This document shows, one piece after another, positions 2,462-29,089 of a stretch of 64,000 nt of DNA. Source of the DNA: Oscillospiraceae bacterium (GTDB lineage Bacteria > Bacillota > Clostridia > Oscillospirales > CAG-382); the NCBI GenBank assembly GCA_015064955.1, contig SVRD01000006.1:40714-104713 (forward strand), written 5' to 3'. The position numbers and the translations under genes are program-made. Position 1 is the first letter of the stretch; every line of letters begins with the position of its first letter. Below the pieces are notes generated by a model, which had not been told where the DNA came from, did not search any database, and was given only the letters and a program-made list of their open reading frames with translations.

Positions 2462-3490
2462 ATGAATATGCAATTTTTCCGCAAATTACCTATTCCCCAG
2501 CAGGTAAAGCAGGATTACCCCGTGACTCCCGAAATGGAGTCTGATAAAAACTCCCGCGATGCCGAGATCCGGTCGATATTCAAGGGTGAATCCGATAAAT
2601 TTATCCTTGTTATTGGTCCTTGCTCCGCAGACCACCGCGAGCCCGTTCTCGAATATATCTCGCGCCTCAGAACACTTCAGGATAAGGTTGACGATAAGAT
2701 TTTTATTATTCCCCGTATCTATACTAATAAACCCCGTACAACAGGCGAGGGATATAAGGGAATGCTCCATCAGCCCGACCCCGACGAAAAGCCCGATATG
2801 TACAAGGGCATCGTCGCGATACGTGAGCTCCATATGAGCGCACTGAAGGACTACGGCTTTACCTGCGCCGACGAAATGCTCTATCCCGAAAACCACCGCT
2901 ATCTTTCCGACCTTTTGGCATACGTTGCGGTAGGTGCACGCTCGGCAGAGGACCAACAGCACCGCCTCACCGCAAGCGGATTGGATTGCCCGGTCGGTAT
3001 GAAAAACCCCACCGGCGGCGACCTTACGGTTATGATGAACTCGATCCGTGCCGCTCACTCAAGCCATACCTTTATCTATCGCGGCTGGGAGGTAAAGAGC
3101 GCGGGCAATCCCTATGCCCACGCGATCCTTCGCGGTTACGTCGATTTCGCGGGTAAGAGTGTTTCCAACTACCACTACGAAGATCTTGTAAAGCTCAACG
3201 AGCTCTATCTCGCATCCGGCTTGGCAAATCCGTCCGTGATCGTAGATACAAACCACAATAACTCGGGCAAGCGCTATCTCGAGCAGATCCGTATCGCAAA
3301 CGAGATAGTGGAAAGCCGAAATTATAACTCTGATGTCAAAAAGCTTGTAAAGGGCTTGATGATCGAAAGCTATATCGAGGACGGCGCACAAAAGATCGGC
3401 GAGCATACCTTCGGGAAATCGATAACCGACCCCTGCTTGGGCTGGGAAAAGACCGAAAAGCTCGTTCTCGAATTGGCAGAAAAACTTTAA
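2462..3490 (+). CDS. aroF: 3-deoxy-7-phosphoheptulonate (DAHP) synthase, class I
   Basis: 342 aa. Contains VIGPCSADHRE and IPRIYTNKPRT motifs. Last gene of the aro block. Confidence 0.85.
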   Translation: MNMQFFRKLPIPQQVKQDYPVTPEMESDKNSRDAEIRSIFKGESDKFILVIGPCSADHREPVLEYISRLRTLQDKVDDKIFIIPRIYTNKPRTTGEGYKGMLHQPDPDEKPDMYKGIVAIRELHMSALKDYGFTCADEMLYPENHRYLSDLLAYVAVGARSAEDQQHRLTASGLDCPVGMKNPTGGDLTVMMNSIRAAHSSHTFIYRGWEVKSAGNPYAHAILRGYVDFAGKSVSNYHYEDLVKLNELYLASGLANPSVIVDTNHNNSGKRYLEQIRIANEIVESRNYNSDVKKLVKGLMIESYIEDGAQKIGEHTFGKSITDPCLGWEKTEKLVLELAEKL

Positions 3491-3569: not shown

Positions 3570-4517
3570 TTAAAAATAATGATAAAGCAGAGATTTTCGT
3601 AAATTTTCTGTTCCGTCTGCGTATACTACCGTATACCAAACAGTAACTTGGATTATATGATCTTTTTCATCGTAATGGAAATAGCATGGCCCGTGAATAC
3701 TAAAGTCGATTACTTCCTTTACATATTCAAAATTTTTGTCGGCGTAATAATCCAAAACCACCGTTTTGGCACTTTCAAGATATTCATCGAGCGTATAATC
3801 AGGCAAATCCGGTATTTCATTGTCTTGAAAATCTTTGAATCGACAAACCGAACCGGTCGAATATTCAATCCAAACTTCACAGCTATTTATACATATTCCG
3901 TTCTCGTCATATTGCCTGAAACAGAATTGATGCCAACCTCCGCGAGTGTGAGTAAACTCTGGGTCAAGCTTAACTGTGCTCCAGTCAATATTTTTGCAAG
4001 TGTTTTCGCGAACCCAAGGTTCAGCGATCTTAAGAAGCTCTTCTTCTGTATAAGGTTCATCTCTTTTAGCGGTTCCCGGATCAGTGATAAACATGAAGTG
4101 CGGCGTTTCTGTGCCTCGTTCAAATCCGATTCTACCAAAGTCCTTAACACGATAATAATCCAGTATAAGATAGGTATGCGCATAGTGCATTGAATCTTCA
4201 TATACTGCATTTTCGAAGTTATAACCGAAATATGTTCCGCTTATAGTTTTGCCTTCCAGTTCTTCGTAATACAGAACTTCATTAAAATACCCCGGGTCGA
4301 TAACTGCGATTTCATTTATATCGTCATAATATCCGTAAGGAGGCGGGTATAGGATTTTTGCTACCACAAACTCGGGAAGATCGTTGCTTGGATAGGAAGA
4401 ATCTATGTTTGATAACTCGTCACTAACATTGGAAGATTGTATATCCGTAGTTGTATCAACCTGACACGATGACAAGATGATAATAGAAACAATCAACAAA
4501 CATATGATTTTTTTCAT
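3570..4517 (-). CDS. hypothetical lipoprotein
   Basis: 315 aa. Signal peptide MKKIICLLIVSIIILSSC has a lipobox (LSSC). The gene is AT-rich and I recognise no family. Confidence 0.6.
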   Translation of the reverse strand: MKKIICLLIVSIIILSSCQVDTTTDIQSSNVSDELSNIDSSYPSNDLPEFVVAKILYPPPYGYYDDINEIAVIDPGYFNEVLYYEELEGKTISGTYFGYNFENAVYEDSMHYAHTYLILDYYRVKDFGRIGFERGTETPHFMFITDPGTAKRDEPYTEEELLKIAEPWVRENTCKNIDWSTVKLDPEFTHTRGGWHQFCFRQYDENGICINSCEVWIEYSTGSVCRFKDFQDNEIPDLPDYTLDEYLESAKTVVLDYYADKNFEYVKEVIDFSIHGPCYFHYDEKDHIIQVTVWYTVVYADGTENLRKSLLYHYF

Positions 4518-8549: not shown

Positions 8550-11500
8550 ATGAAAGTACTTAAGAAATCGTTGTGTCTGCTGATCGTGGCGGTTATGCTT
8601 CTTTCGGTAGTTATCGGCACAATGGTGTCTGCCAACGCCGCTGCGTTTACCATACAGCGTCAGTGGGACTCAAAATGGAAAACCGTTTATGTCGGCGGCA
8701 GAACAATGTATAATACCGCGTGCGGTATATTCTCGATCGTAAATGCTGTCGGTTATCTTACCGGCAACGCTCCCGATGTATATTCTGTTGCCGTTTGGGC
8801 AAACAGCATCGGCGCGTTCAATACCGCTTCCTTCGGCGGTACCGACCGCAGCACTCTTTATCCCAGAATCCAAGCTAAATACGGCTCTACATACGGATTC
8901 ACGTGCGATGTAGCGGGCGGCTCGGGCTATTGGGCAACCGCAGCAAGCACGACTCTTAAAAACCATCTTAAAAACGGCGGTGTTGCAATCGGCCACGTTC
9001 CCGGTCACTTTATTGCGATTGTAGGATATGATGCATCGACCAACAAATTCCACGTTTACGACAGTGCACCCAGCACCTCGAGAGGCACTGCTACATACGG
9101 CGCAACCGGTTTGGGCGACTGCTGGGTTACCCAGTCGAGACTTTCCACCGGCAAGCTTGACCTCGACTGGTTCTGTCTCCTTTCTGCAACCAAGGCACCT
9201 GTTAATAAGGCTTCTCTGAGAGGTCTCCTCAACGGTGGCAACAAGGTTTCGCACAAGGATTACAATACTACCACTCTTCAGGAGCTCCGTGTCGCGTATG
9301 ATGCGGCTGTCGTTGTAAGCAACAACTCCTCCGCAACACAGAGTGAGGTTGACACTGCGGCTAAAAACCTTCTCAACGCACTTTTGAATACAAGTGCAAA
9401 GAACGTTTTGTCGGTTGGCAAGAGCTATACCTCTACCGGTTGCAGCAGAACCGATGATTACTCCGACGACGGCGCTGTTCTTACCGATGGCGCAAAGGGT
9501 AAGACCGACGGCGGCACTACTCAGTATGCGGGTTTCCAGAATACTGCCGAAATCATTATCGACCTCGGTTCTGTTCAGAAGGTAGATACCTTCACAGCAT
9601 ATATGGCAGCAGGCTCTTGGGGCATCGCTGCTCCCACCTCCGCTTGTCTCGAAGCATACGTTTCTACCGACAAAAATATCTACACCAAAGCGGCAAGCAC
9701 TTCTGTTGCTATCGTTACCAACGGCACCGGTACTTACGATGAAACCTGGTCCAATTACAGAATGACTGCAACCTCCGATAAACAACATGATGCAAGATAC
9801 GTAAAGATAGTTATTAAGAACTACGATGGTTCTACCTCTCAACACATCTGGCTTGATGAAGTCGAGGTTTCCTGCTATACCGGCGCACATATCACCGATG
9901 CGATTTATATTTCGGGCATCAACTCAAAGGTTGCCGCAGGCGAAACCAAGATCTTTACCTCCGCGTTCAATAACGGCGTGATCTCCTCTTCTTATGATGC
10001 GGCAAATATCGCTTGGACTATGAACGTTGTTGCAAAGAAGAATTCCGACGGCTCTTACACAGTCAAGAGTGTAGCGGCAGGTGACGGCACCGCTGCTTCG
10101 AGCTATACTCTCGCGTCCGATGAAATTCTTATCGCGGCTCACTCTTGGGAGGATAACGTAGACGATCCCATTGGCGACAGCGCTGATAACTTCAAAAAAC
10201 TCGGCGCGTTGCAGGTTGGCGACAGCCTTTACCTCAGCGGTATCAATACCGACTATTCCTTTATCAATATCGGTGCATTCGTTTCTACCGATACAAAGAA
10301 CGGCTCGGGCACTGTCGGCGGCTCTGACGTAGAACAGCTTGTCGGCGGCAAGACCTTCTGGCTCACTCATTACAATGACAGCGTTGTTGAAGGCGCAGGC
10401 GTTATCATTACCGAATCATACTCCGGTGCGGTTTGGTGGTTGCACGTTGCGTTTGCTCCCACCTCGATCCCCAACGTATATGAGATCACCGCGATCTCCG
10501 ACGGAACCGATATTGGCGACGGCGAAGCACTTTCGATCCCCGCAGGCGGCTTTGTTTATGCGGTGAACTACGGTAACGACTATCCCTCCATCAATGCTGA
10601 CGGAAGCGGCACTGACTATACCTCCGAAAAATGTACCGCCGCTATTATCGACGCTCTTACCTGGAAGGTTGGCGACAAGCTCAAGATAAGCGGCATCGAT
10701 ACCGTGAACAAGACTATTCCCACCTCTACCGCAGGTAAAAAGTGGTATGACGATTCGTACGTTTGCACCGCAAACTACATTATGTATGATCCCAGCGCTA
10801 ACGAAAACCCCGACGTTTCTTATGACACCACAGTATATGATAATATGCTTTGGCTTACCCACTTCAACGATCTCTATAAAGAAGGCGCGGGCGCAATCGT
10901 AACCGATCCTACAATAACCGGAACCCAGTGGAACGATTACTTCGCGTTCACTCCCGTTGAAGGCACAAATATGTATGAAATTACCGCTATTTCCCGCGGT
11001 ATGCACGTTGGTACGTCTACCTTACCTGCACTTCCCGAAGGCGGCTTCATCTATTCGCTCAACCCCGGCAACGACTATCCCACACTTAACCAGACCGGAG
11101 ATACCGCCGGAAAATTCCCCGACCTTCCCGACTATACCTCCGAAAACTGCTTTACTATGGTTTCGATGGTAGAGGATTGGCAGATCGGCGACAGATTTGT
11201 GTTCGGCAACCTTGACCTCAACGGCAAAACTATTCCCACCACTACCGCTTCTAAGGAATGGTACGAGGAAGGCTATGTTTGTACCGCAACCTTCCAGAAG
11301 GTAGTTGAGGAAGAAATTCACGAGCACACTCCCGGTACCGAAGCAAGCTGTACTACCGATCAGATCTGCACCGAATGCGGCGAAGTGCTTGTCGAAGCTT
11401 TGGGACACACCCCGGGCGAAGAAGCAAACTGCACAAGATATCAGACCTGTACCGTTTGCGGCGAGATCCTTGCAAACTCCACCGGACACAAAGCAGGTGA

Positions 11501-23518: not shown

Positions 23519-23532
23519 AAAAAATGATATAA
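23505..23532 (+). promoter_or_regulatory. promoter of tRNA-Thr
   Basis: TTGACA (23505-23510), 16-nt spacer with an extended -10 TG, TATAAT (23527-23532). It lies inside the 3-prime end of cca. Confidence 0.7.
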
Positions 23533-23562
23533 TCCCTCTTGCGCCTGCAAATGCGGGTGCTG

Positions 23563-23637
23563 TGCTGGTGTGGCGCAGGGGTAGCGCAATTGATTCGTAA
23601 TCAATAGGCCGAGGGTTCAAATCCCTCCACCAGCTCC
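23563..23637 (+). tRNA. tRNA-Thr (anticodon CGT)
   Basis: Manual cloverleaf: acceptor GCTGGTG/CACCAGC, D arm GCGC-AGGGGTA-GCGC, anticodon arm ATTGA-TTCGTAA-TCAAT, T arm GAGGG-TTCAAAT-CCCTC, encoded CCA. 75 nt. Confidence 0.9.
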
Positions 23638-23642
23638 ATAAC

Positions 23643-24707: not shown

Positions 24708-24789
24708 CAGAATCATCCTTTTGAAAGCTTTCTGTTATTGTATCATAACAGAAATTAATAGTCAACCGAATATCTTGAATAAAAAGTAC

Positions 24790-24818
24790 TTGCAAATTCA
24801 AAAAATGTGTGATATAAT
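24790..24818 (+). promoter_or_regulatory. promoter of tRNA-Leu
   Basis: TTGCAA (24790-24795), 17-nt spacer, TATAAT (24813-24818). Confidence 0.7.
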
Positions 24819-24850
24819 ACACTTCGCGTGGTAAAAACGCATCAATAATT

Positions 24851-24937
24851 GCCGGAATGATGGAATTGGCAGACGTGCTGGACTCAAAATCCAGTGGTAG
24901 CGATACCGTGCGGGTTCGACCCCCGCTTCCGGCACCA
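24851..24937 (+). tRNA. tRNA-Leu (anticodon CAA), class II with long variable arm
   Basis: Acceptor GCCGGAA/TTCCGGC, anticodon arm CTGGA-CTCAAAA-TCCAG, variable arm GGTAGCGATACC, T arm GCGGG-TTCGACC-CCCGC, encoded CCA. 87 nt. Confidence 0.9.
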
Positions 24938-24938
24938 G

Positions 24939-24975
24939 AAAAGTCTCCAAGTTATATACTTGGAGACTTTTGCTT
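24939..24975 (+). terminator. terminator after tRNA-Leu
   Basis: Perfect 12-bp stem aaagtctccaag/cttggagacttt with a 7-nt loop. Confidence 0.8.
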
Positions 24976-25335
24976 GTTACGGGTTGGCACCAACACTCCC
25001 GAAAACGGCAGATTTTCTATGCCCCGTCTGGTTTTGGGAATTGTTCGACACTCGTTATGTTACTGTTGTGAGTGCCGTTGGTAATGTTAATTTTGATATT
25101 ATATATGTACTGGCAAAACACAATTCTCCAGAAATCCAGTTTTCCAAGTATAATAGAGTAATATTAAACTTCCGAAACTTTTTCTTCGAAAGTTTTGATG
25201 TTTTTGGGAATCATAAACGAAAACTGTATATATGCGTATTATCGATGTGTTTGATATATTGAAAAGTCAATCGATATATGTTAAACTAATGCGAAAGTAG
25301 AAGAAATGAAGTAATACCACGATAAAGGATAAGAT

Positions 25336-26376
25336 ATGAATTTTACATTTAATGATTATATACTTGATGTGGATATTGAAAAAATGAAAAGTGTTATTCT
25401 GAAAAACTACAAATGCCAATGTGCAATTTGCAAAGCTTTTAGAGAATATGCGGACACTTTAGATGAAAATATAACAGCCAAATTGATTGCCTTGGGTGTT
25501 AATATAGAACGTCCTGATGAGGTTTTTGACATAGGCGAGGATGAAAACCAAAATGTTTGCTATTCCGGGTGGTGGAATATTTACGGGAAGATTCTAACAA
25601 AATCCCAAACACCTTACCAAATATCCGACGGCTTTGAGCTAACCTTCTGTGACGATAGCCAATATGCTCCGCGGTGGTTTCAAGGTAGTGACTATTTTCA
25701 AATGCGTTTTTTAATTCGCAAAAGCCAGCTAAAAAGAATTGGGAAGAAATATCAAGTAGGCGACAAAACAGTATTTTCTTACCATATAGGCGATAATGCT
25801 TGTGCAAATATGTATAATCTTATTGGCGGAAAGATTTTCAAGATTTATTCCGATAGTATTATAAAAAACGATGCTCAAATAAAGTGCCATAATGTGGAGA
25901 TTTTCATAGAAAACGAATCCCGTTATCAAAAGCTTTCACTTTCTGTATCGCGGGATTTAGATACCTGCTTTGATGGTATAGACCGAATGGCGCTAACACT
26001 TGATAGCGTTAACATTGACTCCACCGAAGCAGAGCTATTGCTACAAGATGATATCATTTCTTGCTCGATGGGAAAAATCAAATGTATTAAAGTTTTTGAA
26101 AGTACAATCGAGGGTGAAAACGACAAGGTTGTTTATGATTCTCACATCGTCATCGAGGACGACTTAGGGAAGAAACTTATCTTTCGTGCAGAGCCCGACG
26201 GTGAAGAAGTGATGACGGTTTTCACTGACATAGATGATAATGACGTAGAAAAATATCTTCGCGTTTCGGATACTTGGTTTGTAAATGACGATTCGGCTTT
26301 TTATGAAAACAACGAGATAGACGGCGTGAAGAATTGTTACAAAACCGAAACGAAACTTAGAGTTTTTGTGATGTAG
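25336..26376 (+). CDS. hypothetical protein (island cargo 1)
   Basis: 346 aa. AAAGGATAAG RBS. Acidic, with no signal peptide, TM helix or catalytic motif that I recognise. N-terminal CQCAIC cluster. Markedly AT-rich. Confidence 0.6.
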   Translation: MNFTFNDYILDVDIEKMKSVILKNYKCQCAICKAFREYADTLDENITAKLIALGVNIERPDEVFDIGEDENQNVCYSGWWNIYGKILTKSQTPYQISDGFELTFCDDSQYAPRWFQGSDYFQMRFLIRKSQLKRIGKKYQVGDKTVFSYHIGDNACANMYNLIGGKIFKIYSDSIIKNDAQIKCHNVEIFIENESRYQKLSLSVSRDLDTCFDGIDRMALTLDSVNIDSTEAELLLQDDIISCSMGKIKCIKVFESTIEGENDKVVYDSHIVIEDDLGKKLIFRAEPDGEEVMTVFTDIDDNDVEKYLRVSDTWFVNDDSAFYENNEIDGVKNCYKTETKLRVFVM

Positions 26377-26442
26377 AGTGGAGAGATGAAGGAGATGATG
26401 GAAATTTAATAACACAAAGAATTATTAATGAGGGGGATTTTA

Positions 26443-26994
26443 ATGAAATTCGATTTTGAGAAACTATCTAAAGAAGATTCGCACAAGATAAGGCAAAACT
26501 TCATTGATATGTTTGTCGATACATCTCATGATCTTTTTGTAAAGTATATACGGGATGTTAAAGCCGATGATATTTGGGAAGGTTATGGGCATATTGCGTC
26601 GTATTTGTTTGCCTGTTTAAAAAATAGTGTAAGTCATAAGGAATATACTAGTAAGGCGTTTGAATATTTGAATGGATTGAATAACAATGATACTCTCTTT
26701 GTTATGTTTGATGTTCGTCCCGCAAAACGAATTTATCCCGATGGTTGCCGTTCGATTGCTGAGCCATACACGAAATACTTTGATTCTGATATGGTTTTGA
26801 GAATTAAGGCAGATGATTTGTATAACGTTTTAATGCATGATTATAACAGTCCTGTGGGAAATCAGATATTTGGTGAAGATGTGTATGTGTTCGAGCCATC
26901 ATTTAAATGGTATATTGCTTTTACTCATAATTCTTTCGTAGATGATCAGGGAAGCGAATGTGGTCAGTATTGCTATTCTAATATAACATTATGA
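26443..26994 (+). CDS. hypothetical protein (island cargo 2)
   Basis: 183 aa from the ATG at 26443, after a GAGGGGGA RBS; the tracked start at 26428 overlaps the RBS. Cytoplasmic, with no recognised domain. AT-rich. Confidence 0.55.
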   Translation: MKFDFEKLSKEDSHKIRQNFIDMFVDTSHDLFVKYIRDVKADDIWEGYGHIASYLFACLKNSVSHKEYTSKAFEYLNGLNNNDTLFVMFDVRPAKRIYPDGCRSIAEPYTKYFDSDMVLRIKADDLYNVLMHDYNSPVGNQIFGEDVYVFEPSFKWYIAFTHNSFVDDQGSECGQYCYSNITL

Positions 26995-27054
26995 CTACAA
27001 GCGAAAACGTTGTTTTTAATTTACAATCGAAAGATGAATGTCGGTCACCACGTA

Positions 27055-27105
27055 CTTCCGGCACCACGAAACTCCCCAAGCTATATGCATGGGGGGTTGT
27101 TTTTG
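27055..27105 (+). repeat. att-like copy A: tRNA-Leu 3-prime 12-mer plus a diverged copy of its terminator
   Basis: cttccggcacca at 27055-27066 is identical to 24926-24937. The following cgaaactccccaagctatatgcatgggggg is homologous to gaaaagtctccaagttatatacttggag and is followed by a T-run. Confidence 0.65.
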
Positions 27106-27191
27106 CGTTTATATACGAGGGACGAAGGGCGCGTGTTGAATGACAGTCCGGGGGACTGTCAGACCGCGCCACCGCTCCGACCGCAGTCGGG

Positions 27192-27217
27192 CGACCCCCG
27201 CTTCCGGCACCAGAAAA
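27192..27217 (+). repeat. att-like copy B: 26-bp perfect direct repeat of the tRNA-Leu T-loop through CCA plus 5 nt
   Basis: cgacccccgcttccggcaccagaaaa at 27192-27217 is identical to 24917-24942. Confidence 0.85.
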
Positions 27218-27247
27218 CGACAGATTTCAAGGGGAATCTGTCGTTTT
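27214..27247 (+). terminator. hairpin terminator attached to copy B
   Basis: Perfect 13-bp stem aaaacgacagatt/aatctgtcgtttt with an 8-nt loop. Confidence 0.7.
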
Positions 27248-27248
27248 C

Positions 27249-27422
27249 AGTTATATTCGCCTTCGGCGAGTTATATTGCCTTGCAGTTATATTTGGCTTG
27301 CGCCAAGCTATATTGCCCGATGGGCAGTTTTGGAGGCGAATATAATATCACTGCTAAACTAAGTGAAGCAATATCACCACGAGCAAGGCGAGTAATATCA
27401 CTCCGTCGAAGACGGAATATCC
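27249..27422 (+). repeat. two families of short direct repeats, each unit followed by a GC mini-hairpin
   Basis: AGTTATATT at 27249, 27269 and 27285, and AGCTATATT at 27306. AATATCAC at 27344, 27370 and 27394, and AATATCC at 27416. Mini-hairpins include cgcc-ttc-ggcg, ttggc-ttgc-gccaa, tgccc-gat-gggca and tccgtc-gaa-gacgga. Confidence 0.7.
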
Positions 27423-27491
27423 TTAAAGTCTTACAATTTTGCAAAAGTCCGAATTCATACTAAAAAATGCCGAGGATATCTTTTTTTGTAG

Positions 27492-27509
27492 CCGGCACCA
27501 TGAAAAGTC
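27492..27509 (+). repeat. att-like copy C: ccggcacca(t)gaaaagtc
   Basis: Matches 24929-24945 (tRNA 3-prime end plus the first 8 nt downstream) with a single 1-nt insertion. A strong terminator follows immediately. Confidence 0.55.
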
Positions 27510-27540
27510 ACTTTTGTCTACGACAAAGGTGACTTTTTTC
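27503..27540 (+). terminator. strong rho-independent terminator with no upstream gene (possibly the ancestral tRNA-Leu terminator)
   Basis: 16-bp stem aaaagtcacttttgtc/gacaaaggtgactttt (one G-U pair), 3-nt loop, T-run. Confidence 0.75.
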
Positions 27541-27609
27541 AATGATATCAGTTCTTCGCGGAATGGGTGATATTTGTCTTTGGCATATAAGAAACAGATA
27601 TTATATTTA

Positions 27610-27638
27610 TTGACACAAATTTACAAGTATGGTATAAT
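27610..27638 (+). promoter_or_regulatory. glnA promoter
   Basis: TTGACA (27610-27615), 17-nt spacer with an extended -10 TGg, TATAAT (27633-27638). AAGGAG RBS before the ATG at 27665. Confidence 0.75.
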
Positions 27639-27664: not shown

Positions 27665-29089
27665 ATGGCAAAGACGATTCAGGATATACTTAATATTATT
27701 AGAGAAAACGGTATCAAAATGATCGACTTCAAAATGGTCGATATCAACGGTCAGTACAGACACGTAACCATTCCTGCCGAAAACTTTTCGGAGGATACAA
27801 TGAAGAGCGGCATCGGCTTTGATGCATCGAATTACGGATACGCTGTTGTTGAAAAGAGCGATATGGTGTTTATCCCCGATCCCGACACCGCGATGATCGA
27901 CCCATTCTGCGCGATACCCACTCTTACGATGACGGGCAACGCGATGATTATAGATTCGCCCGAAAACCGCCCCCTCGCTCAATATCCGCGCAATATCGTG
28001 CTTGCGGCAGATAAATATATGAAGGATTCGGGTGTAGCGGATACTATGCTTATTCTTCCCGAATTCGAGTTCTATCTTTTCGATAACGTCGCTTGGGACG
28101 TCGCTCCCAACAGTATCGGCGTAAATCTTGATGCGGTTCAGTCCTATTGGAACACCGCAAACGAGGGAAAGGGTGTAGTTGTTCCCAAGCAAAAGGCATA
28201 TCACATCGCAAAGCCGTTCGACGTTTCCTATGAGTGCCGTAGCGAAATGTGCCTGCATATGAAGGACGCGGGAATCGATATTAATTATCATCATCCCGAG
28301 GTTGCCGCTTCGGGTCAGTTCGAAATCGAGCCTCAGCTCGGCGAAATGACAAAGATGGCAGATGCCACTATGATGATAAAATATATCATTCATAACACCG
28401 CGCTTAAATACGGCAAAACCGCAACCTTTATGCCGAAACCCATTTACGGCGAAGCAGGAAGCGGTATGCACGTACATATGCTTCTTCTTAAGGATGGACA
28501 ACCCGTATTCTCAGATGATAACGGATATTCACATCTGAGCGAGACAGCACATTACTTTATGGGCGGCTTGCTTAAGCATATCGCATCTCTTTGCGCGCTC
28601 ACTAATCCCAGCACGAACTCGTTCAAGCGTCTTGTTCCCGGTTATGAAGCGCCTGTCACGATCGGATATGCGACATCGAACAGAAGCGCTGTTATCCGCA
28701 TTCCCGCGTATGCAAAATCCCCTGAAAAGCGCCGTTTTGAGCTTCGCAATCCCGATGCAACCTGCAACCCCTATTTCTGCTATGCCGCAATACTTATGGC
28801 GGGTATCGACGGTGTAAAGAACAAGATCGATCCCCACGCAAACGGCTGGGGTCCTTATGACGTCAACCTTTATCATTTGAGCGACGAGGAAAAGGCAAAG
28901 CTTCGCCATCTTCCTACCTCGCTCGAGGAAGCTCTCGATGCACTCGAAAAGGACAACGATTATCTTACCGTAGGCGGTGTATTCCCGAAGGAGCTTATTG
29001 CAAACTTTATTAAAAATAAGCGTGCGGAATGCCGTGAGCTTGCAAATATTCCTCATCCTGCTGAATTTGATAAGTATTATAACCTTTAA
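27665..29089 (+). CDS. glnA: glutamine synthetase, type I
   Basis: 474 aa. ATP-binding signature KPIYGEAGSGMHVHM. The length and N-terminal beta-grasp region are typical. Confidence 0.9.
   Translation: MAKTIQDILNIIRENGIKMIDFKMVDINGQYRHVTIPAENFSEDTMKSGIGFDASNYGYAVVEKSDMVFIPDPDTAMIDPFCAIPTLTMTGNAMIIDSPENRPLAQYPRNIVLAADKYMKDSGVADTMLILPEFEFYLFDNVAWDVAPNSIGVNLDAVQSYWNTANEGKGVVVPKQKAYHIAKPFDVSYECRSEMCLHMKDAGIDINYHHPEVAASGQFEIEPQLGEMTKMADATMMIKYIIHNTALKYGKTATFMPKPIYGEAGSGMHVHMLLLKDGQPVFSDDNGYSHLSETAHYFMGGLLKHIASLCALTNPSTNSFKRLVPGYEAPVTIGYATSNRSAVIRIPAYAKSPEKRRFELRNPDATCNPYFCYAAILMAGIDGVKNKIDPHANGWGPYDVNLYHLSDEEKAKLRHLPTSLEEALDALEKDNDYLTVGGVFPKELIANFIKNKRAECRELANIPHPAEFDKYYNL

Follow-up and report, generated by a model that had tools for sequence, protein, structure and literature searches.

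The window analysed here, a 64-kb stretch of contig SVRD01000006.1 from an Oscillospiraceae bacterium (coordinates are those of the window, read on the + strand), contains an intact tRNA-Leu(CAA) gene that is followed by further copies of its own 3' end before glnA and a DUF3810 gene are reached. The interval from tRNA-Leu(CAA) to DUF3810 probably represents a nested stack of insertions, in which incoming DNA has used either the tRNA-Leu 3' end or a copy of that end, with repeats of 9-12 nt at the borders and terminators of its own. The kind of locus is known, a tRNA-associated insertion hot spot; the novel parts are its recurrent miniature modules, namely a structured unit (X) and an element of ~280 nt with hairpin arrays of the Gut-1 family (RF01706), and the context gained for Gut-1. 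The evidence comes from the window and from comparator loci (labelled L006-L113) in related genomes and in phage and provirus contigs.

Copies of the tRNA-Leu(CAA) 3' end

A preliminary description of this DNA placed three copies of the tRNA 3' end (A, B and C) in direct orientation downstream of the intact gene. All three were confirmed, with matches of 12/12 nt for A, 26/26 nt for B and 17 nt with one indel for C, and they are above chance. Counted over the whole window, the 12-mer has three matches with at most one mismatch, where 0.16 are expected and 0/100 shuffles reach three, and the 9-mer CCGGCACCA occurs exactly four times, always on the + strand and always within 24929-27500; the count and placement of the latter reject a chance match as an explanation of copy C. 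Similarity to the tRNA breaks off at the T-loop or the acceptor and is absent from the 5' two-thirds of the gene, and at A, B and C Infernal cmscan detects no tRNA up to E <= 1. In agreement with the preliminary description, the copies are sharply bounded tRNA 3' ends that have been displaced, not tRNA pseudogenes; the inserts between them are heterologous and have each their own terminator. All four terminator hairpins are strong (Table 1).

The similarity of copy A extends at 75% across 51 nt, into the homologous terminator; by comparison with L111 and L113, copy A would be the old tRNA 3' end, which stands before the X unit in these relatives. Copy B, when read from 27188, matches at 30/32 positions, with a TT deletion permitted in the T-loop. 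Copy C appears to be the end of B, displaced and joined to the terminator that B formerly had: terminator C is homologous to the L111 terminator directly 3' of the B-equivalent (36/49 alignment columns, 73.5%). Part of the "CC" of copy C belongs to the conserved Gut-1 tail GTAGCC.

A fifth copy, Z, absent from the preliminary description, adjoins the tRNA's own terminator. It consists of ACGGGTT and GGCACCA with 14 nt deleted in between, followed by 8 nt that resemble the start of terminator A and by GAAAACGGCAGATTT, a degenerate terminator-B-like hairpin with 14/15 identity to the left arm of terminator B; its alignment score is reached by 0/500 shuffles. From this layout, copy Z looks like the remnant of a collapsed A-X-B arrangement or of a Gut-1 leader. 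Duplication on the 5' side is seen elsewhere: in L065 (7530-7609) a partial anticodon and variable-arm copy of tRNA-Leu(CAG) lies just upstream of the intact tRNA.

The Gut-1 element

The segment between copies B and C appears to be a discrete insertion of ~280 nt with its own terminator. In a four-way alignment, L112 and L082 form a filled and an empty site: L112 has the intact tRNA, a B-type terminator, a hairpin array and the tail TTTTATAGCC, and then the terminator and flank that are found directly after tRNA-Leu in L082, corresponding to an insertion of ~280 nt between CCA and the tRNA terminator. At the junctions a short repeat of the tRNA end, 6-9 nt, is present on both sides, and the window element is flanked by two copies of CCGGCACCA. 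Left and right ends are shared by the elements of the window, L082, L112 and L009, the right end being ATCTTTTTTGTAGCC in all four, with a different terminator next in each. Furthermore, the L082 contig that carries glnA opens with a sequence 79% identical to the window stretch from B to C (27210-27493), about the same identity as for glnA, and this contig starts exactly at CCA.

Internally, the element has four forward hairpin units with the AGT-TAT-ATT bases and 3-4 reverse units, thus at least three hairpins in each array; the two arrays are mutually inverted, and true terminal inverted repeats were not identified. All window scores against RF01706 (Table 1) are under the gathering threshold of 50 bits. 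Homologous arrays in L093 (59.1 bits), L046 (53.4 bits) and L082 (51.3 bits) pass this score, and the Gut-1 assignment therefore holds for the element type, with the window copy a diverged homolog of true RF01706 members. Behind terminator C, which had been described as having no gene to terminate, a second, decayed array gives a weak match at the position where L111 has an array after the homologous terminator. Terminator C therefore does have something behind it, apparently the remnant of an older Gut-1 element.

The array is always located directly after a tRNA 3' end and one hairpin. This end belongs to an intact tRNA-Arg(ACG) in L093 and to an intact tRNA-Leu(CAA) in L112, and is a tRNA 3' fragment in the window, L082, L046, L089 and L107/L108. 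The centre motif of Gut-1 is absent from the viral contigs searched. The publication on Gut-1 presented it, from metagenomes of the human gut, as an orphan motif without organism or context and as a structured non-coding RNA candidate on the basis of covariation (PMC2864571).

Several further observations concern the surroundings of these arrays. In L093 (6005-6576) and L046 (1-585, - strand), which are unrelated contexts, a 23S_rRNA_IVP gene (PF05635, a four-helix bundle) directly follows the Gut-1 array, and array plus gene may be a longer version of the element. L093 is GenBank MT835815.1, labelled "UNVERIFIED: Bacteriophage sp.", and is the sole match in the phage collection; with an M18 aminopeptidase, tRNA-Arg, a CHAP-dockerin protein and a LytTR two-component system nearby, the stretch looks bacterial and not viral. 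At the provirus ends of L107 (~10100-10200, - strand coordinates) and L108 (13995-14112), the C-terminus of an open reading frame (ORF) that we labelled by eye as serine-recombinase-like runs into the tRNA-like 3' fragment GTTCGAATAAGCCCTCTTCGTCTCCACCA, followed by a terminator and a Gut-1 array. Contigs of metagenome-assembled genomes end exactly at or inside the Gut-1 element or a tRNA-end copy (L082 position 1, L009 position 1), and these repeats appear to break short-read assemblies.

The X unit

X starts with an inverted piece of the T-loop, GGGACGAA, with one mismatch to the reverse complement of TTCGACCC, and continues with two GC-rich hairpins, GGCGCG..GACAGTCC-GGG-GGACTGTC..CGCGCC and CCGAC-CGCA-GTCGG. 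From the inverted piece to CCA (27117-27212) the unit is 92.7% identical to that of L111 (89/96), and the B-equivalent is identical at 21/21 positions in L113 and 20/21 in L111. For comparison, the terminators just 5' of X are 46-51% identical, in effect unalignable, and the neighbouring CAAX protein is ~50% identical between the window and X-bearing relatives.

RNAalifold on five X units (window, L111, L113, L103 and L072) yields a fold of three helices. In P1 the inverted piece pairs with the T-loop of the tRNA-end copy, copy B being the 3' strand of this closing helix; the long hairpin P2 reads GACAGTCC/GGACTGTC in the window and GACGTGCC/GGCACATC in L113, and the short GC hairpin P3 reads CCGAC/GTCGG in the window and CCGTC/GACGG in L111. 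Double compensatory changes affect 8/28 consensus pairs, and P1 covaries with the T-loop of the local tRNA. For a sample of five sequences this covariation is suggestive of a conserved structure, for which the best description would be a three-helix fold with the acceptor 3' strand and CCA left as a tail. Since the X unit is conserved in relatives and shows compensatory changes, copy B is probably part of a structured module and not a lineage-specific scar. The 0.13-kb segment, earlier taken for a separate insertion with scar B, would instead be this module, which stands at the same tRNA in L111 and L113.

The same architecture (tRNA end, terminator, inverted T-arm piece, structured GC-rich core, direct T-loop-to-CCA copy) is observed behind tRNA-Lys(TTT), Pro(CGG), Ser(GGA), Ser(GCT) and Leu(CAG) of related genomes, sometimes as two tandem units, and X-like units are also located just outside the attR of two proviruses. 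A census covered 36 distinct tRNAs whose downstream sequence was long enough; 7 of them are followed by a copy of the 3' end (at least 14 nt of the last 26 nt, within 3 kb), and 6 of these copies are 136-315 nt downstream. One core, X2, is 96% identical between L072, behind tRNA-Pro, and the provirus flanks of L102-104, beside a different tRNA, with tRNA-derived flanks that are only 74% identical. Presence varies as well: tRNA-Leu(CAG) has 0, 1 or 2 X-like units among relatives, and X is absent after tRNA-Leu(CAA) in L006 and L082. Little could be learned from aligning GC-rich segments of different tRNAs directly, three at a time, homology being clear only within X families. At orthologous sites X is thus conserved and structured, and between sites it is discrete and portable.

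An ATG ORF of 107 aa (27140-27463) extends from X across copy B and terminator B and through the Gut-1 arrays; in all likelihood it is spurious, and it is of the sort annotated as a hypothetical protein.

The two-gene block and the interval in related genomes

Between the intact tRNA and copy A lies a 2.1-kb block of low GC content (26-40% across 25000-27000, compared to 42-51% in the flanks) that would be a cargo insertion bracketed by a 12-nt repeat. It is flanked by two copies of CTTCCGGCACCA and is without recombination genes, resembling a cis-mobilizable element (CIME) between att repeats, and the same holds for the Gut-1 element between its two copies of CCGGCACCA. The low GC content and the occurrence of the ORF1 family in variable contexts agree with the foreign, accessory cargo of tRNA islands.

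Neither ORF1 nor ORF2 has a match in Pfam, PHROG, PADLOC or NCBIfam, and ORF1 has none among PDB sequences. The ORF1 family comprises 59 proteins, with invariant CxCxxC and WWN motifs; its members are often found within arrays of small same-strand ORFs. The AlphaFold2 model of ORF1 is confident and beta-rich (predicted local distance difference test 81.6, predicted template modelling score 0.79), and Foldseek finds no match for it in the PDB at E <= 0.001. The neighbours of ORF1 homologs change: L089 has the gene by itself after tRNA-Ser(GCT), L092 has it within a long same-strand array that follows tRNA-Trp, in L091 it belongs to an array adjoining a 97-aa integrase fragment, and in L086 it is flanked by unrelated genes. 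The genes after ORF1 elsewhere show no homology to ORF2, and a travelling pair of ORF1 and ORF2 was rejected.

L111, L112 and L113 keep the gene order GHL10, CCA-adding enzyme, tRNA-Thr, CAAX, tRNA-Leu(CAA), and two of the three also keep DUF3810 and an aminotransferase gene. At the identical tRNA-Leu(CAA), L111 and L113 are without ORF1, ORF2 and glnA. In L113 the tRNA is followed by its terminator, GAGGGTCGAAGGG (a perfect inverted T-loop copy), a homolog of 27117-27191, the 21-mer CGACCCCCGCTTCCGGCACCA, a terminator and, immediately afterwards, the end of DUF3810; this arrangement would be the site when empty of ORF1 and ORF2, of the Gut-1 element and of glnA. In L111 the X unit is followed by the B-equivalent, the terminator-C homolog, a Gut-1-like hairpin array, a 315-aa ORF and DUF3810. 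The gene glnA is thus itself inside the variable interval; L006 has it there together with extra genes.

The empty sites that the preliminary description had proposed to look for among relatives exist between species, in L113 and L111 for ORF1-ORF2 and glnA and in L082 versus L112 for Gut-1, but not within the species. At the strain level, 22 contigs that share the GlnA sequence of the window and 15 that share its CAAX protease were compared. The 15/15 identical-CAAX contigs share the arrangement of the window (for the GlnA contigs, see below); the next CAAX homolog is only 52% identical, so that no close strain variants were available, and a metagenome search with CAAX returned only four distant matches. 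Among 80 glnA loci from GTDB genomes synteny is rarely kept, and only L006 and L082 were informative.

Table 1. Positions of features in the tRNA-Leu(CAA) region of the window.
Feature	Position	Strand	Remarks
tRNA-Thr(CGT)	23564-23638		
tRNA-Leu promoter-like site	24790-24818	+	TTGCAA-17-TATAAT with TG; block from ~-76 to +6 conserved with L006
tRNA-Leu(CAA), intact	24851-24937	+	50.6 bits; identical in L006, L111, L112, L113
term0, current tRNA terminator	24938-24975	+	14-bp stem, -20.4 kcal/mol
Copy Z, degraded tRNA 3' copy	24979-25038	+	Alignment score compared with shuffles
ORF1	25336-26376	+	346 aa; putative cargo gene, low GC
ORF2	26428-26994	+	188 aa; no Pfam match
Copy A	27055-27066	+	CTTCCGGCACCA; 12/12; right-hand repeat bracketing the 2.1-kb block
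Terminator A	27067-27105	+	-17.9 kcal/mol; 75% similar to term0
X	27117-27191	+	Inverted T-loop piece, then two GC-rich hairpins
Copy B	27188-27217	+	T-stem/T-loop through CCA + 5 nt; 26/26 from 27192
Gut-1 element no. 1	27213-27491	+	Terminator B, forward array, reverse array, conserved tail TTTTTGTAG(CC)
Terminator B	27213-27248	+	Perfect; part of Gut-1 element; -23.2 kcal/mol
Gut-1 forward hairpin array	27248-27318	+	RF01706, 38.7 bits
Gut-1 reverse hairpin array	27340-27425	-	RF01706, 34.9 bits
Copy C	27492-27509	+	CCGGCACCA + T + GAAAAGTC; right-hand repeat of putative Gut-1 insertion
Terminator C	27503-27537	+	16-bp stem, -20.8 kcal/mol
Decayed Gut-1-like array no. 2	27540-27606	+	26.3 bits, E 0.071
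glnA promoter	27610-27638	+	TTGACA-17-TATAAT (12/12)
glnA	27665-29089	+	Inside variable interval; absent here in L111 (2343-4001) and L113 (3517-4001)

Integrases and phages

No integrase, excisionase or replication gene is present in the interval between tRNA-Leu and glnA, in line with the preliminary description, and the integrase that tRNA islands hold inside the element is lacking here. In L094, a phage contig from IMG/VR, a distance of 50 nt separates a Phage_integrase gene from an exact 27-nt copy of the tRNA-Leu(CAA) 3' end; the contig has no tRNA there, GGTAGTC motifs recur on both arms, and lysis genes are located on the opposite side. As judged from this likeness, integrases do use this tRNA-Leu site. 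A tblastn search of the window with the integrases of L094 and L103 gave no match, scans of viral sequences for empty-site junctions (intact T-loop with a second terminator, or tRNA-Leu with a terminator of B type) found none, and a plasmid search gave no match.

Reconstruction of the stack and alternative explanations

By comparison with the relatives, the ancestral state would have consisted of the tRNA, a terminator, the unit of inverted T-loop piece, X and copy B, terminator C and a Gut-1-like array. The Gut-1 element would have inserted between the CCA of B and terminator C, duplicating CCGGCACCA and leaving copy C. The 2.1-kb block, with term0, copy Z, ORF1 and ORF2, would have inserted into the tRNA's own 3' end, displacing CTTCCGGCACCA and the old terminator, which now form copy A and its hairpin. 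As for the mechanism, recombinases provided in trans, for instance by phages like L094, may have acted site-specifically at the T-loop or the 3' end of the tRNA, and X and Gut-1 would then be non-autonomous miniature passengers. A more specific proposal, which we put forward tentatively and consider rather doubtful, is that X and Gut-1 are two protein-less families of miniature elements ("integrase MITEs", after MITEs, the miniature transposable elements with inverted repeats), which enter tRNA T-loops or the gap between CCA and terminator, bring a replacement terminator and are moved by a recombinase encoded elsewhere. In a bolder version, the X unit would be a folded attC-like recombination site and the tRNA 3' ends of Oscillospirales would be platforms for cassette capture; if true, this would explain why cargo genes, even glnA, accumulate behind tRNA 3' ends.

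Several results weigh against a stack of insertions. Phage L094 has a tyrosine integrase beside an identical 27-nt attP, but in the window 0/28 ORFs tested contain a Phage_integrase domain and no recombinase was found. All 22 contigs with identical GlnA have the same arrangement, and there is therefore no sign of present-day mobility. Flanking repeats of 6-12 nt would fit the target duplication of a transposase as well as an att core, and an alternative order, in which Gut-1 came first at the tRNA and X later, can be drawn from the same data. The covariation of X comes from five sequences only, and its conservation and covariation fit a host-selected RNA or DNA structure at least equally well. 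Finally, X does not occur in the real phage P arms of L094 and L103 and is therefore not simply an arm of those phages.

The preliminary description read the three copies as scars of successive insertions at the intact tRNA. Taken literally, three integrase-bearing elements would have entered the tRNA in turn and later been deleted to random remnants of 2.1, 0.13 and 0.28 kb. Direct 3'-end repeats with sharp boundaries and the existence of a phage attP matching tRNA-Leu(CAA) in L094 agree with this scenario, and rows of partial tRNAs left by successive integrations have been documented elsewhere (bioRxiv 10.1101/2020.12.28.424599; PMC9897764; PMC4383910). We regard it as unlikely: the X unit is located at the same tRNA in L111 and L113, with high identity (in L111) and compensatory changes, and is not a random remnant; the Gut-1 ends are constant in four genomic loci; the Gut-1 element sits at B and not at the tRNA; and no integrase fragment is left. 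A succession of three scarring events at the intact tRNA does not agree with a Gut-1 element at B and an old, conserved X unit, and between the two fates then considered, extreme decay fits worse and tiny integrase-less satellites fit better. Local DNA mechanics without mobile DNA, by which unequal crossing-over, replication slippage or palindrome extension would have duplicated the 3' end and terminator, are very improbable as the whole explanation. Near-identical tandem units, with terminators identical in both copies, do occur in L053, L072-Pro and L106, and inverted T-arm pieces right after terminators extend the palindrome in L011 and L089. However, the three intervening segments (low-GC two-gene block, X and Gut-1) share no homology, X and Gut-1 recur at unrelated tRNAs of other genomes, and tandem duplication may amplify units but cannot create heterologous inserts. 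A tandem array of tRNA-Leu pseudogenes, to which the repetition of 3' ends in one orientation might point, is hardly credible and was rejected with the truncated similarity and the cmscan result above, the copies having no homology to the tRNA over its whole length.

A different explanation is that X and Gut-1 are structures selected by the host, such as 3'-trailer RNAs, mimics of the tRNA 3' end or secondary (decoy) attB sites, with the copies kept as part of the fold. We consider this possible, though on balance not the likely origin of the interval. In its favour, X and B are conserved far above the neighbouring DNA, with covariation in three helices and an almost invariant B at ~50% CAAX identity; Gut-1 was itself proposed as a structured RNA; and proviruses have their attR sites upstream of X units, leaving X intact. 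The preliminary description had set a conserved structured RNA against its insertion reading, and such conservation was found for the X unit and B only, in a small sample, while empty-site variants do exist. Evidence of portability runs counter to host selection: the X2 core is nearly the same at two different tRNAs, X is missing in L006 and L082 and varies from 0 to 2 units at tRNA-Leu(CAG), and Gut-1 has a filled and an empty site with flanking short repeats. In addition, a terminator stands between the tRNA and each module, and co-transcription is therefore doubtful. The two readings of X, as a host-selected structure and as a non-autonomous mobile element, are not mutually exclusive, and a nested stack of insertions remains our preferred account of the interval as a whole.

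Relation to known systems

Stacked partial tRNAs are a textbook footprint of integrases. Sublocation classes for integration at tRNA genes were reportedly set out by Williams in 2002. Like Islander-type tRNA-integrated islands and prophages (PMC4383910), the window has an intact tRNA with displaced 3' fragments in direct orientation, an identity block that begins in the T-loop for B and in the acceptor 3' strand for A and C, incoming DNA that restores the 3' end and terminator, cargo of foreign composition and a phage with matching attP (L094). In contrast to these islands, there is no integrase in the stack or in the 64 kb, two of the inserts are protein-less and 75-280 nt long, and the repeats measure only 9-12 nt. 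The tycheposon islands of Prochlorococcus (bioRxiv 10.1101/2020.12.28.424599) also have rows of partial tRNAs, newer DNA that pushes older DNA outward and integrase-less att-flanked units; their units are, however, kilobases long and recognisably derived from integrase-bearing elements, whereas the window has an insertion in a secondary copy (B) and the conserved, structured X.

In streptococci, accretion of CIMEs and of integrative and conjugative elements is tandem accretion at one site. With Gut-1 as published (RF01706, PMC2864571), the window shares the array of short hairpins, the conserved bases and the 3-nt linker; the window copy differs in its score (38.7 bits, below 50) and in being part of a ~280-nt element directly after a tRNA 3' end. 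The features of MITEs and of repetitive extragenic palindromic (REP) sequences, bacterial interspersed mosaic elements (BIMEs) and REPINs (PMC3184786) are partly shared by the modules, which are small, non-coding, hairpin-rich and intergenic, have short flanking direct repeats, are polymorphic for presence and absence, and occur as near-identical copies at different sites. Unlike MITEs, the window modules are strictly targeted to tRNA T-loops and CCA ends, and the inverted piece of X matches the local tRNA; terminal inverted repeats were not demonstrated and no cognate transposase was identified for the window modules. With integron attC sites, X has in common an imperfect palindrome of 75-140 nt with paired ends, a branched variable centre and a structure that is more conserved than its sequence. 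It differs from them in that no integron integrase is nearby and RYYYAAC/GTTRRRY boxes and an attI appear to be missing, and the likeness is architectural only.

The steps of the staircase at this locus are thus defined, recurrent non-coding modules of 75-280 nt and not decayed islands. New in this respect are a first organismal context for Gut-1 (Oscillospirales of animal guts), a first genomic context (immediately 3' of tRNA ends, polymorphic as an indel, with its own terminator), and a conserved structured unit that embeds a T-loop-to-CCA copy of the local tRNA, such copies being found behind about one in five of the tRNAs sampled in the clade. Should the modules be mobilised in trans, they would be site-specific integrative elements of a miniature class; should they be host RNAs, they would be structured elements of a new kind, linked to tRNAs. 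In both cases they explain assembly breaks, spurious calls of hypothetical proteins and likely mis-calls of islands by finders that rely on tRNA fragments.

Other observations

The neighbourhoods of glnA differ in most of the 80 related genomes, and in L065 a tRNA-Leu(CAG) is located ~300 nt upstream of the gene. In L006, the nearest GTDB species (GlnA 95% identical), tRNA-Thr and tRNA-Leu (the latter with its promoter) are each inverted relative to the intervening CAAX gene (window 23524-23638 and 24775-24943, L006 633-747 and 2058-2225), and the inverted blocks end at tRNA 3' ends, which suggests recombination between inverted tRNA-end copies. Downstream of glnA in L082, a GC-rich direct repeat of ~80 nt (GCCGTAGGGGCGATTCACGAATCGCCCGTTCTCGCC...; 2895-2975 and 3183-3262) may be another family of miniature repeats.

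A link between the inserts and the nearby gene for the CCA-adding enzyme was considered, and the proximity was treated as coincidence, because the gene is syntenic in relatives whatever their inserts. Two ORFs of 294 and 315 aa without a Pfam match (1600-2484 and 3570-4517, both on the - strand) stand amid genes for aromatic amino-acid biosynthesis. The rest of the window consists of housekeeping genes, with aroA, DAHP synthase, rlmN, rsmB, fmt, sigma-70 and pheS.

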